From Candidatus Microgenomates bacterium (GTDB lineage: Bacteria; Patescibacteriota; Microgenomatia; 2-02-FULL-39-11): a stretch of DNA of 27,253 nucleotides. The stretch covers positions 1-27,253 of the forward strand of contig JALHWS010000093.1 of assembly GCA_022866885.1 (NCBI GenBank), given 5' to 3'. The translations under genes and the position numbers were made by a program. The notes under the pieces were generated by a model. The model searched no databases and was not told the origin of the DNA. It was given only the letters and a program-made list of their open reading frames with translations. This document shows positions 18,322 through 23,327 of the stretch, in pieces. Every line of letters starts with the position of its first letter. The first letter of the stretch is position 1.

Positions 18322-19182
18322 TCATAAGACATCAAACCAGTGAGGATTGCTTTCGACTGTCAGATCCAAATATATTTTTTTGTTGGTGGCCGTTTCCAAT
18401 TCTTTTCTCGCTGCCATGCCGATTTCTTTAACCATCCGGCCGTTTTCACCGATAATCATTCTCCGGTAACGGTCGGAACTCGTGATAATCCGAGCTTTAA
18501 TATAAGTTGAATTGTTAGCTCTTTCCTTTATTTCATCAACTTCCGTCATTATTGTGTAAGGAAGTTCTTTCCTCAAGAAAAGAAAGGCTTTTTCGCGGAT
18601 GATTTCGGAAAGAAAAGTCTTACTGTCCATATTCAGCGCCGGTGTAGGACGGCCGGAGTTATCAACGATTTGTTCGCCTTCCGGCAGAAATTCAAAAATC
18701 GCGTCCAGCAAATAATTTAAGTTTGATTTGTATAGGGCGGAGATATAGACGGTTTTATTAAACTCTTCTTCGAGGAATTTATAATGGGGTAGAAAAGAAG
18801 GCTTCTTGATATCGGTTTTATTAATCGCCAGAATTTTCGGAGCATCCATTTTCCTGATAATTCCTAAAATCTTATTTTCCTCTATATCCCTTTCTCTGCT
18901 ATGGTCAACAATATAGACAATGACACTGACTCCTTCTTTCAAAGTCTTCTCGGCAATCGGATTGATCTTTTTGGAAACCGGGTCATTAACTTTACCGAAG
19001 ATTCCGGGGGTGTCGATAAAAATTATCTGTCCCCTCTCGTCTTCATAAACGGCTTGGATCGGAATACGGGTGGTTTGCGGTTTGGGTGAAGTGATGGAAA
19101 CTTTTTGACCCAAAAGGTTATTCAGCAAAGTTGACTTGCCGCTGTTGGGACGACCGATGAGTGCTACGTATCCGCTTTTCAT
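18322..19182 (-). CDS. era: GTPase Era
   Basis: GRPNSGKS, SPKPQTTR, DTPG and NKTD motifs; KH domain ELPY...IIGENG.MVKEIG..AR.ELE. Start at ATG 19182; alternative in-frame GTG 19224 and TTG 19221. Confidence 0.97.
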   Translation of the reverse strand: MKSGYVALIGRPNSGKSTLLNNLLGQKVSITSPKPQTTRIPIQAVYEDERGQIIFIDTPGIFGKVNDPVSKKINPIAEKTLKEGVSVIVYIVDHSRERDIEENKILGIIRKMDAPKILAINKTDIKKPSFLPHYKFLEEEFNKTVYISALYKSNLNYLLDAIFEFLPEGEQIVDNSGRPTPALNMDSKTFLSEIIREKAFLFLRKELPYTIMTEVDEIKERANNSTYIKARIITSSDRYRRMIIGENGRMVKEIGMAARKELETATNKKIYLDLTVESNPHWFDVL

Positions 19183-19209
19183 AATTTTGCCATTTTCTGC
19201 TCGTTTCTT

Positions 19210-19278
19210 GACCCCATACAACACTTACCTCCTCCCGAGGTCTACGTCCTCGCGTCGGAGGGGCGTGTATACGGGGTC
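19210..19278 (-). ncRNA. Candidate structured RNA / dispersed structured element, copy 1 (era leader)
   Basis: Minus strand: GACCCC GUAUACAC GCCC CUCC GACG CGAGG ACGUAGA CCUCG GGA GGAG GUAA GUGUUGUAU GGGGUC. It covaries with the copy at 22287-22354. Family not recognised. Confidence 0.55.
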
Positions 19279-19281
19279 TGC

Positions 19282-19310
19282 GGAGTTAGAAGCTTTCAGC
19301 TTCTAACTCC
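19282..19310. repeat. Perfect 13-bp hairpin
   Basis: GGAGTTAGAAGCT-TTC-AGCTTCTAACTCC, abutting a TTGACA box at 19311. Confidence 0.8.
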
Positions 19311-19340
19311 TTGACAAATTATACACTTCTGCTTTAGGAT
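19311..19340. promoter_or_regulatory. Divergent promoter region (era and the small membrane protein gene)
   Basis: Plus strand: TTGACA (19311-19316), 18-nt spacer, TAGGAT (19335-19340). Minus strand: TATAAT (19323-19318) with no clear -35. Confidence 0.55.
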
Positions 19341-19349
19341 ATGGGTAGT

Positions 19350-19592
19350 ATGAAAAAGTGGTGGGAGAAATTTTACAAAGAAAATAAAGCGATTGTCTGG
19401 GCGGCGGTTGTTGCAATCATTATCTCTTTAGGAGTCTTGATCAAAGCCAAAGACGAAGTGACCCGCTTTACCCTGATTATGCCGGTCTTCGCCGGCTTTA
19501 TCCTTTTTTCGATCCTGATGACTTCCGATGAAGAATTGGAAGAAGAGGAAAAAGAAGAAAAGAAATCCCCCAAAAAGCGGTCAAGAAAGTGA
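19350..19592 (+). CDS. Small two-TM membrane protein with acidic/basic tail
   Basis: MKKWWEKFY..., two hydrophobic helices, then EELEEEEKEEKKSPKKRSRK. ATG 19350 is preferred over 19341 because 19341 abuts the -10 box. Confidence 0.7.
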   Translation: MKKWWEKFYKENKAIVWAAVVAIIISLGVLIKAKDEVTRFTLIMPVFAGFILFSILMTSDEELEEEEKEEKKSPKKRSRK

Positions 19593-21062: not shown

Positions 21063-22247
21063 ATGAAATTTAGAGTTTATTATTTTCTCTTTCTTATTTT
21101 CTCTCTCTTTTTCCTTCTTCCCTCCCCAATCTTTGCCAAACCTTCTCAACCATTTGCTCCCGATAAAATTCTGGTGAAATTCAGGGAAAACACGCCGGAT
21201 GTTATCAAAGAAAAATTTCAGAAACAATTTGAAACAAAAATAAAAGACAAAATCAGCCGGCTTGATGTCGAGGTTATGCAAATATCACGGAAAAATCTGA
21301 CTGATCTGGTCAACCAATTCCTGCTCTTGCCTTTTATCGAATACGCCGAACCGGATTTTGTGGCAACAACAATGGATGTTCCCAATGACCCTTATTTTAA
21401 TCTTAATCTGCAATGGGGCATGCAAAAGGTGAAAGCGCCGGACGCCTGGAAAATCTCTACAAGTAACCCTGGAGTAAAAATTGCCATTCTGGATACCGGT
21501 ATCGACCGGGATCACGAAGATCTTTCTTCAAAAATCACTGATAATTGGAATTGCACTGACAGTCCTCTTGATGATGATTCATACGGCCATGGCACTCATG
21601 TCGCCGGTATTGCTGCGGCTGCGACTAACAATGGCACCGGTGTCGCCGGTTTAGGTTACAATGCGTCATTAATGAACGTTAAAGTTTTAGGCGATGACGG
21701 TTCAGGCTACTATTCGTGGATTGCCAATTGCATCACTTGGGCGGCTGACAATGGCGCTAAGGTTATCAACATGAGCCTGGGCGGTCCATCCAAATCAAAG
21801 ACTTTGGAAAATGCCGTTAATTACGCTTGGCAAAAAGGTGCCGTTATCGTGGCGGCGGCAGGTAATTCCGGCAACAGTTCGCCTACATACCCTGCTTATT
21901 ACACAAATGTCATTGCGGTGGCCGCCACCGACAGCAACGATAAAAAGGCTTCCTGGTCTTCCTACGGACGCTGGGTGGATGTGGCCGCTCCGGGAGTCGA
22001 TATTTACTCGACTTTCCCCAATCATCCTTATACTATTGGTAAAAAGTTGGGTTATGATTATGGTTCGGGCACTTCCATGGCCACCCCTCATGTCTCCGGC
22101 TTGGCCGCTTTGGTTTGGTCGAGTTCTTTTGGGACGAGTAATGCAAACGTGAGGAAAAGGATCGAGTCAAAAGCGGATAAAATCTCCGGCAGCATTATGT
22201 ATTGGACTTATGGCCGCATCAACGCCCTAAAAGCCGTTTCTCCTTAA
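21063..22247 (+). CDS. Secreted S8 subtilisin (thermitase-like) serine protease
   Basis: Signal peptide MKFRVYY...IFA, propeptide, catalytic triad ILDTG / HGTHVAG / SGTSMATPHV, oxyanion AAAGN. Start at ATG 21063; the track's start lies upstream of the promoter. Confidence 0.93.
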   Translation: MKFRVYYFLFLIFSLFFLLPSPIFAKPSQPFAPDKILVKFRENTPDVIKEKFQKQFETKIKDKISRLDVEVMQISRKNLTDLVNQFLLLPFIEYAEPDFVATTMDVPNDPYFNLNLQWGMQKVKAPDAWKISTSNPGVKIAILDTGIDRDHEDLSSKITDNWNCTDSPLDDDSYGHGTHVAGIAAAATNNGTGVAGLGYNASLMNVKVLGDDGSGYYSWIANCITWAADNGAKVINMSLGGPSKSKTLENAVNYAWQKGAVIVAAAGNSGNSSPTYPAYYTNVIAVAATDSNDKKASWSSYGRWVDVAAPGVDIYSTFPNHPYTIGKKLGYDYGSGTSMATPHVSGLAALVWSSSFGTSNANVRKRIESKADKISGSIMYWTYGRINALKAVSP

Positions 22248-22286
22248 GTCTGTTGTTCACTTAACCACTTATCAGCATCCAACGCG

Positions 22287-22354
22287 GTCCCAGTACAACG
22301 CTTACTTGCTCACATGGTTTACATCCATGCTTCGCAAGGGCGCGTATACGGGAC
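22287..22354 (-). ncRNA. Candidate structured RNA / dispersed structured element, copy 2 (3' of trxB)
   Basis: Minus strand: GUCCC GUAUACGC GCCC UUGC GAAG CAUGG AUGUAAA CCAUG UGA GCAA GUAA GCGUUGUACU GGGAC. Same architecture as 19210-19278. Confidence 0.55.
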
Positions 22355-22376
22355 TCGCTGCACGTTATTTATCAAA

Positions 22377-23327
22377 TCAATTCTTTAAACCATTCTCCTC
22401 CAACCAACGTGAGGCATCCAAAGCGGCCATGGCGCCGAAACCGGCGGAGGTAATGGCCTGTTTATAGCGGTAATCAGCCACGTCGCCGCCAACGAAAACT
22501 CCAGGAATATTGGTAGCCATCCGGTACTTAAGAAGACTTTTTTCATTCTTTACTTCTTTCCGGACGATATATCCTTTTTCATCCAAATCTAATCCTTTAA
22601 AAAGAGTGCTGTTTGGCTTATGTCCGATGGCCAAAAAGACGCCGTCTGTTTTAAACTCTTTTTCATTTCCGGTCTTTACGTCTTTTAACATTAATCCCGT
22701 CAATTTATCAGTTCCCAGATACTTCGTTATTGTTTTATTCCAGATCACCCTGATCTTCGGATTGGCAAAAATCTTCTCCTGCATCGCGCAGGATGCCCGG
22801 AACGAGTCTTTCCGGTGAATAATTGTTACCTTATTGGCTACATGGGAGAGAACTTCCGCTTCCTCCATGGCACTATCACCGCCGCCGATAACGACAACGT
22901 TTTTATTCCTGAAGAAAAAAGCGTCACAGGTGGCACAGGTGGAGATACCTTTCCCCCGGAGTGTCTTTTCCCCCGGCACGTTTAACCAAAGACTGTCAGC
23001 ACCGGTAGTGATAATGATTGATTTTCCCTGATAAGTTTTCCCGCCGGCAGTCGCTTTAAACGGTTGTTTGGAAAAATCAGTCGCGGTGAAATCGGTATTT
23101 ACTATATCTACTCCCAATCTTTCCGCCTGCTTTCTCATGTTTATCATGAGCTGCGGTCCCTGGATGCCTTCGGGGAAACCGGGGAAATTTTCAACCAAAG
23201 TGGTCAGCATCAGTTGTCCGCCCCATTTCGTCCCGGCAATAAGAAGTGTTTTATGTCCTGCTCGGACTGAGTAGATACCGGCAGTTAAACCGGAAGGACC
23301 GGAACCTAAAATAATAATATCATACAT
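22377..23327 (-). CDS. trxB: Thioredoxin-disulfide reductase
   Basis: GSGPSG, GGQLM.T..VENFPG, CATCD, VIGGGDSAMEEA, IHRK, TNIPGVFVGGDV.D..Y.QAITSAG motifs. Confidence 0.96.
   Translation of the reverse strand: MYDIIILGSGPSGLTAGIYSVRAGHKTLLIAGTKWGGQLMLTTLVENFPGFPEGIQGPQLMINMRKQAERLGVDIVNTDFTATDFSKQPFKATAGGKTYQGKSIIITTGADSLWLNVPGEKTLRGKGISTCATCDAFFFRNKNVVVIGGGDSAMEEAEVLSHVANKVTIIHRKDSFRASCAMQEKIFANPKIRVIWNKTITKYLGTDKLTGLMLKDVKTGNEKEFKTDGVFLAIGHKPNSTLFKGLDLDEKGYIVRKEVKNEKSLLKYRMATNIPGVFVGGDVADYRYKQAITSAGFGAMAALDASRWLEENGLKN

Follow-up and report, generated by a model that had tools for sequence, protein, structure and literature searches.

A structured palindromic repeat family confined to the Microgenomates, a probable non-autonomous insertion element often found beside displaced gene ends

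Introduction

The described sequences closest to the repeat reported here are the REP and REPIN elements of proteobacteria, which are linked to RAYT transposases, and the Rickettsia palindromic elements (RPEs). REPs are short, protein-less, GC-rich imperfect palindromes that occur in many copies, lie mostly outside genes and fold in a strand-specific manner. RPEs are structured palindromic repeats found both between genes and in frame within genes whose reading frames they leave open. Bacteria of the candidate phyla radiation have tiny genomes and are usually described as poor in mobile DNA.

We analysed a 27,253-nt contig of a Microgenomates bacterium (the window), in which a first-pass annotation made from the sequence alone had picked out an unrecognised structured element in two copies. 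This element, here called E, belongs to an undescribed family of protein-less structured palindromic repeats of ~70 nt, confined to the class Microgenomates. All the REP properties listed above apply to E, and Y1_Tnp genes are common in its host class. E is twice as long as a REP, however, with three stems and conserved internal loops; its distribution is patchy whereas REPs are vertically stable; and no cognate RAYT flanked by E was seen in the source genome. REPINs are inverted doublets, whereas nearly all E copies are singlets, the exceptions being an abutting inverted pair (G039:C10) and a convergent pair 540 nt apart (L074). To our knowledge, gene-end duplications are not a feature of REPs. 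RPEs, which like E have no known mover, differ in host phylum and sequence family, and in-frame copies are a minority for E (3/109). We know of no description of polarity or displaced gene ends for RPEs.

E lacks key features of REP-RAYT systems (a flanked RAYT, doublets), IS200/IS605 derivatives, retroelements, guide RNAs and Rfam families, and by analogy it appears to work most like REP and RPE elements. We think it probable that E is a non-autonomous DNA-level insertion or recombination element of the REP/RPE kind, and not a cis-regulatory RNA. In genomes this small, a gene-less structured repeat makes up a visible share of intergenic space, and E alters the leaders and trailers of essential genes and in some cases their coding sequence too.

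Results

Two copies of a folded element in the window

Both copies lie on the minus strand where the first-pass annotation had placed them, with sequences exactly as it gave them. The source genome (G000; 1.28 Mb, 213 contigs) was compared with a same-genus relative (G001). The features at the two sites are as follows, the second site being treated further with the trxB gene below.

19210..19278, minus strand: element E copy 1 (covariance model 97.2 bits, E = 2e-24; family covariation); in order, P1, 3x3 loop GCC/UAA, P2, tandem G.A, one base pair, bulged G, P3, A.A, C-G, GUA triloop
CCCC (19276-19273) to GGGG (19215-19212), minus strand: conserved core of copy 1
19280..19281, minus strand: conserved GC dinucleotide, 2-3 nt 5' of P1 (flanks of 38 copies and junction listing)
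19282..19310, minus strand: perfect 13-bp hairpin GGAGTTAGAAGCT-GAA-AGCTTCTAACTCC, directly 5' of copy 1
19310..19315, minus strand: upstream GTCAAG, a direct repeat with 19207-19212 that encloses the hairpin and E
19207..19212, minus strand: downstream GTCAAG, beginning within the terminal GGGG of copy 1
19311-19316, plus strand: TTGACA -35-like box, whose reverse complement overlaps the upstream GTCAAG (divergent ORF start at 19341)
22287..22354, minus strand: element E copy 2 (88.7 bits), 22 nt past the trxB stop codon

A 20-nt degenerate core pattern matched only these two copies in the window, with 0 matches expected from shuffles. The first-pass annotation had claimed that the fold is strand-specific, and the energies bear this out: the minus strand of copy 1 folds at -41.8 kcal/mol (z = -5.96; 0/200 shuffles as good), and the plus strand at -33.6 kcal/mol (z = -2.5).

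The GC dinucleotide 5' of P1 is likely to be part of the 5' end of E; in the flanks of 38 copies and the junction listing, most copies carry (C)AGC, TGC or GGC at the same site. Where copy 1 has its 13-bp hairpin, the other AGACCCC-subfamily members also carry a hairpin, though its sequence differs. The flank repeated around copy 1 is only 6 nt (GTCAAG), enclosing the 29-nt hairpin and E, and is a short version of the flank duplication described below. The TTGACA box is a putative part of the promoter of the divergent ORF that starts at 19341. Copy 2 has an ortholog in G001 (locus L016).

A family confined to one class

A third copy was found upstream of an ilvD-like gene on another contig of the source genome, and a covariance model was seeded with this copy and the two in the window. 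The search for homologues that the first-pass annotation had proposed returned many copies in Microgenomates. The model found 13 copies in the 1.28 Mb of the source genome and at least one in 20 of 61 related genomes, all of them Microgenomates, with a maximum of 14 copies per genome and a patchy spread over families. In a phylum-wide sample searched with the same model, every match fell within Microgenomates, and 0 of 143 genomes from other classes carried E. All hosts identified by name, Levy-, Gottesman-, Roizman-, Woese- and Collierbacteria, belong to the Microgenomates. A wider contig search with the core pattern was loose and gave many GC-rich chance matches, from which the model filter left 34 true copies; some confirmed copies lie in generically labelled assemblies, including ones deposited as 'uncultured Gammaproteobacteria'. 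Seven core-pattern matches came from viral contigs, none of them confirmed by the covariance model. In total, 109 distinct copies were collected.

The first-pass annotation could not match the element to a known RNA family, and the Rfam check agrees. Rfam 15 gave no match for the window at the gathering score, only chance-level matches around both copies at E-values up to 10 (no ribozyme or riboswitch among them), and only tRNAs on 14 related loci. A description of the E family was absent from the literature searched.

A covarying fold on one strand

The compensated stem changes claimed from the two window copies are genuine, and they extend across the family. Among 37 distinct copies, 20 of the 25 base pairs show double-sided compensatory change, and paired cells reach 92.4%, as against 31-47% with slid partners. 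In 0 of 500 shuffles did any covariation measure attain its observed value.

The family alignment refines the three loops that had been proposed. From the outside inwards, the fold begins with a P1 of ~14 bp with a bulged U, followed by a 3x3 loop (GCY/UAA) and a P2 of 5 bp; the GCCC/GUAA internal loop of the first-pass annotation is thus real but smaller than described, its fourth C being paired with G. Past P2 lie a tandem G.A/A.G, one covarying pair and a bulged G, which together resolve the conserved GAnG/nGA loop, and then a P3 of 5 bp. The apex, seen earlier as a conserved AYGUARA terminal loop, consists of an A.A mismatch, a covarying Y-R pair (C-G or U-A) and a GUA triloop. In a few copies the tandem G.A/A.G is swapped for U-A pairs. 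REP hairpins have a conserved GTAG at their 5' foot; in E, CCCGTA is conserved within P1, where it is base-paired, and the base after GTA varies (GTAG, GTAT or GTAC).

Across 107 sequences the paired cells held 130 GU or UG and 37 AC or CA combinations. This excess of G-U over A-C indicates that the E-sense strand, as RNA or as single-stranded DNA, is the one that folds. The family offers a clean, well-covarying fold for structural and biochemical work.

Placement, in-frame copies and empty sites

Copies of E lie 5' of genes, 3' of genes, beside tRNAs (several copies abut tRNA genes) and inside ORFs, many of them within 4-50 nt of gene ends or ribosome-binding sites. The neighbours on the 5' side are housekeeping genes (TrxB, SufBD, MreB, TsaD, UvrA, Lon, GreA, HrcA and CvpA), the functions of neighbouring genes are unrelated, and no transposase or recombinase gene was found among the neighbours of E copies. 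In the 109-copy set, with heuristic ORF calls, E lay in sense orientation between co-oriented genes 25 times and in antisense orientation 24 times; the neighbours were divergent in 23 instances and convergent in 6. A sense-strand bias of 19:3 among the best 38 matches was gone when all 109 copies were included. The earlier statement that E is sense to the neighbouring gene is therefore correct for the two window copies but does not hold for the family.

The reverse complement of E is in frame within three ORFs, adding 24 codons to each:

L141:474-546: in-frame E copy in MurD
L142:6479-6550: in-frame E copy in a membrane glycosyltransferase
L203:601-671: in-frame E copy in RecG

Translated, these copies form a 24-residue insert with a common peptide core, ..ARSTSSP..G.S.GQ. 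RecG of G001 reads ..EYEISR[PTPVECSPFARSTSSPHGVASTGQ]ATRLIH.., whereas the same-genus G000 reads ..DYEIDKKYETRLIH..; the 24 extra residues are in G001, and G000 RecG gives a clean empty site for E. The converse occurs in the era leader, where copy 1 is absent from G001: the intergenic regions between era and the divergent ORF are identical in the two genomes up to TTGTCAAGGAGT and then unrelated up to the start codon. When window positions 19182-19420 are set beside G001:C20 (L059:3013-3376), each genome has its own hairpin set, of ~120 nt in G000 and ~185 nt in G001.

As read from the sequences, presence and absence at orthologous sites together with in-frame copies amount to insertion and loss at the DNA level. 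The placements and empty sites are hard to reconcile with a riboswitch, a ribozyme or a gene-specific leader. On another reading, E is primarily a functional RNA module, whether a hairpin with a protective or processing role or a site bound by a global RNA-binding protein, and it has spread and been kept for its action in transcripts. Such a role would suit the conserved non-Watson-Crick features (tandem G.A, bulged G, GUA triloop, 3x3 loop) with their covariation, the G-U excess on one strand, the many copies 4-50 nt from gene ends or ribosome-binding sites, and a CAATCCC subfamily in which a terminator and a conserved 60-nt module invariably precede E, itself just upstream of a ribosome-binding site or tRNA. 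However, half of the copies between co-oriented genes are antisense, some in-ORF copies are both antisense and in frame, the neighbouring genes have no common function, and the strand asymmetry is equally explained by G.T pairs in single-stranded DNA. We consider the RNA module unlikely as the main role of E, although E may act at the RNA level in addition, and the family serves as a caution that strong covariation is by itself no proof of a regulatory RNA.

Displaced gene ends beside E

The flanks provide further evidence for our preferred reading, a mobile or recombining DNA element. A flank duplication, in which sequence lying 2-56 nt upstream of E recurs immediately 3' of it, was present in 17 of the 68 copies examined first and in 23 of all 109, each scoring higher than the 99th percentile of cross-locus controls; in the other ~80% no such repeat was recognisable. 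The flank statistics are based on about 15-23 loci.

The arrangement is always polar. An intact gene terminus, X, lies on the 5' side of E (GC-NNN-CCCC), separated from it by a variable spacer, V. Where the gene is sense to E, X is its last codons with the stop; where the gene is antisense, X is its first codons. V ends in (C)AGC and carries the ribosome-binding site where the terminus is a gene start. On the other side, X' is a displaced copy of the last or first 6-27 codons, joined to the 3' GGGG of E with 1-3 G shared; it starts almost always at the 3' end of E. The island, V plus E only, measures 90-140 nt, and arrays aside there is no copy of X more than ~160 nt upstream of E that would point to a larger island. 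The identical core at the two junctions is 2 to 17 nt long, and the junctions fall in the most conserved motifs (GIDLGT, IIIGSG, ILGIE, IKGARE, AALD). At gene ends, the cases comprise trxB in G000, in G001 and in a further genome where the array runs X0-E-X1-E-X2, together with a SufBD-like gene and two more. The gene-start cases are mreB (twice), a DnaK-like gene, trxB, uvrA, tsaD and hrcA.

In 15 clean X/X' pairs, 65 codon differences were synonymous and 10 nonsynonymous, and nucleotide differences at codon positions 1/2/3 numbered 18/3/65 (P = 2e-21 for a constrained X and a neutrally drifting X'). The mreB changes include AGY/TCY serine switches. Since the differences are nearly all synonymous, X' must have been coding until shortly before its displacement. 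No identical X/X' pair, as expected of a fresh target-site duplication, was seen outside two tandem arrays (L210 and L094), and the repeats are thus unlike fresh target-site duplications. Each array holds two units of gene-end copy, spacer and E (G007:C21:10164-10377, which is L210, and L094:2361-2549, at an mreB start and a trxB end); the near-identical units of L210 suggest a recent local duplication. Two further ideas did not survive. Translation of X' through E is contradicted by a stop inside E at trxB and by a codon phase of X' relative to E that varies between loci, and a short duplicate of the sequence preceding X at the 5' edge of E was confined to the SufBD locus and is not general.

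A tRNA gene offers a similar picture. On contig C12 of G000 (L006:744-977, minus strand), two abutting E copies lie between a tRNA-Thr gene and a tRNA-like 3' end downstream of it. The sequence past the E pair, CCCGC-TCCAGAC-T-CCA, reads as the 3' end (T-stem, acceptor strand and CCA) of a different tRNA allele, and the layout appears to be the tRNA version of a displaced gene end.

Two known kinds of element leave comparable traces. In fungal mitochondria, homing-endonuclease ORFs inserted at the ends of atp6 and cob leave behind a duplicate of part of the C-terminal segment, in the same order as here: intact gene, selfish insert, partial C-terminal duplicate (PMC6279837). Those elements encode a GIY-YIG or LAGLIDADG nuclease, whereas E is ~70 nt long, encodes nothing and also occurs at gene starts and tRNA genes. 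Integrative elements that use tRNA genes or gene ends, and CIMEs, which derive from them but lack the integrase, likewise carry an end that keeps the gene intact and leave the displaced end as a direct repeat, and the E copy at tRNA-Thr has a CIME-like layout. With E, however, the island is only V plus E, and there is no integrase within several kb.

The trxB and SufBD loci

Copy 2 of the window lies in a layout of this kind, at the end of trxB:

22377..22426 (stop 22379-22377), minus strand: X, the functional trxB 3' end ..AALDASRWLEENGLKN, upstream copy of the flank duplication
22357..22376, minus strand: spacer V, tttgataaataacgtgcagc, from the trxB stop to E; identical in G001 and ending in the conserved AGC
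22244..22287, minus strand: X', the displaced trxB end abutting the 3' end of E; in frame from 22285, ALDADKWLSEQQT, then TAA 22246-22244

The frame of X' is open back only 8 codons into E, and X' is therefore no part of a long ORF. Relatives that lack E have trxB C-termini of the form ..AALDADKWL(S/M)E(N/Q).., which resemble the X' of G000 and not its functional X. Identity between the two genomes G000 and G001 is 93-98% over the final 150 nt of trxB with V and E, averages ~83% over the rest of the gene and is 63-73% for X'. On the reading preferred here, E marks places where resident gene ends gave way to ends from other lineages.

At the SufBD-like gene, 401 genomes of the class were searched for a repeated ..QEFT(D/N)-stop, with both copies inside 150 nt. 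This double-end pattern was present in six genomes from four families, and the reversed pattern in none. Between the two copies, three of the six cases have E, two have another short hairpin (TGCCCTGAAC..) and one has no hairpin. In G001 the spacer and the first 18 nt of E are kept, and in three other relatives the site is empty, a patchiness that fits repeated gain and loss. Members of the second hairpin family at SufBD are:

G003:C19:1750-1838 (L267): second hairpin, TGCCCTGAAC...GTTCAGGG
G370:C2:13060-13151 (L272): second hairpin, same family

The presence of this second family at the site means that the gene-end duplication is not specific to E. The same hairpin also lies directly 5' of E at L010 and L025. 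By eye, the spacers at trxB and SufBD held no locus-specific antisense stretch.

SufBD also supplies observations that count against an insertion model. The spacers look homologous across families and E has diverged, which suggests old vertical insertions, and X' is nevertheless undecayed, an intact coding sequence in 6/6 cases. The intact X' may reflect either fast turnover or a constraint on X' beyond the insertion model.

Candidate movers and guides

RAYT-like HUH/Y1 transposases are the only class of candidate mover common in these genomes. Y1 genes are present in 18/20 E-positive genomes, yet also in 25/41 E-negative ones. These genes, ~210-240 aa long and 30-40% identical, occur in 43/61 related genomes, with a maximum of 19 per genome of <1.8 Mb. 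RAYTs of proteobacteria are single-copy, unlike these multicopy Y1 genes. The source genome has two:

C157:11205-11834: Y1 gene of G000
C104:7135-7521: Y1 gene of G000

A model search with filters off found no E within ~1 kb of either gene, and neither has flanking hairpins. TnpB and reverse transcriptase were rejected as movers, neither being associated with E: the TnpB-type domain PF07282 was not detected in G000 or in 18/20 E-positive genomes, and the RVT_1 reverse transcriptase was detected in 1/20 E-positive genomes, which is not G000. In a small sample of eight copies on two long contigs of G039, the orientation of E followed no rule with respect to GC skew, both orientations occurring within arms of one sign; this does not fit the lagging-strand bias of IS200/IS605-type elements. 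On these contigs (C9 and C10), GC skew closely tracks local gene orientation, and its sign flips at about 100 kb on C9, possibly at an origin or terminus.

The near absence of TnpB bears on a reading in which E is the scaffold of a guide RNA akin to TnpB omega-RNA or Cas12 crRNA, with X' as the guide that aims a nuclease or recombinase at the unoccupied allele and the recoded X as the immunity of the carrier. That X' abuts the 3' end of E, that E-X-E-X arrays exist (L094, L210) and that X and X' differ almost only at silent positions are all as such a system would have it. We nevertheless find it very hard to credit: no strong TnpB/Cas12f-type domain is present in G000 or 18/20 E-positive genomes, X' sequences from different genomes in the MreB and SufBD sets, compared by hand, differ mainly at third codon positions, as coding sequence does, the first 13-17 nt are the same in X and X' of several pairs, which would target the carrier itself, and most copies (~80%) have no recognisable X' to act as a guide.

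A metabolite-binding riboswitch or self-cleaving ribozyme in the era leader, to which the compact conserved fold with its conserved loops and the 5'-leader positions of copy 1 and the ilvD copy might point, can be set aside with near certainty, given 13 copies per genome by unrelated genes, copies that are 3' of genes, antisense or inside ORFs, a same-genus era leader that lacks E, and no Rfam ribozyme or riboswitch match even at E = 10. Among the candidate readings of the first-pass annotation, the non-autonomous mobile element has held up; the ligand- or protein-binding RNA and the ribozyme have not, in view of the multiple copies, even orientation, in-ORF copies and flank duplications.

A possible route of spread

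Under the DNA-level reading that we prefer, a unit made of a replacement gene end (X), a spacer (V) and E would enter housekeeping genes near their ends through recombination with DNA of related lineages. The incoming X would keep the gene intact, and the resident end would be pushed aside as X'. On the simplest account, the X-V-E unit arrived recently at each locus, and gain and loss may then cycle as they do for homing elements. The hairpin would be conserved because only copies able to fold as a single strand propagate, the folded strand either being acted on by a structure-specific enzyme or providing a stable 3' DNA end.

We can envisage three mechanisms: an enzyme might cut at the foot of the hairpin; the hairpin might halt exonucleases on incoming single-stranded DNA, with homology-facilitated illegitimate joining to follow; or a small circle might integrate in the manner of Campbell. 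The precise 3' end, the variable 5' extent and the 1-3 shared G are compatible with all three. Integron attC sites offer a parallel, in that they are recognised by their fold, with bulged bases, an unpaired central loop and one active strand. By eye, however, E has no RYYYAAC/GTTRRRY boxes or cassette arrays, its copies are dispersed, and its junction lies at the outer end of the hairpin, whereas that of attC lies inside the R box.

A more specific proposal, which we put forward tentatively and hold to be possible rather than probable, is that E is the working part of a protein-less homing cassette (replacement end, spacer and hairpin) that, after DNA uptake, invades the ends of essential, conserved genes in related lineages through recombination. 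The hairpin would set the 3' end that is joined; homology between the carried gene end and its target would direct the cassette, and the same carried end would rescue the invaded gene. The targets would be trxB, mreB, the dnaK-like gene, uvrA, tsaD, hrcA, sufBD and tRNAs. Such a cassette may be one of a wider class in Patescibacteria, given the other hairpin families at the SufBD site. If the proposal is true, E would be a minimal selfish element whose choice of target is set by the host sequence it carries, a new route by which selfish DNA spreads with no encoded protein, and a practical marker of recent recombination in uncultured lineages.

The CAATCCC subfamily

One subfamily of E has a larger constant context. 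In its members, a hairpin resembling an intrinsic terminator, with a U-run, invariably lies ~60 nt 5' of E and is followed by a conserved stem, GAUGGCUGGUU-AACGA-variable hairpin-GAGUUU-ACCAGCCGAUC. The upstream module has no match in Rfam. The CAATCCC module as a whole measures ~135 nt, with 3-15 nt between its end and a ribosome-binding site or tRNA-His gene; it is found at the following loci.

L001, L007, L013, L015, L020, L027, L030, L036: CAATCCC loci
L074:3414-3480: a further CAATCCC locus
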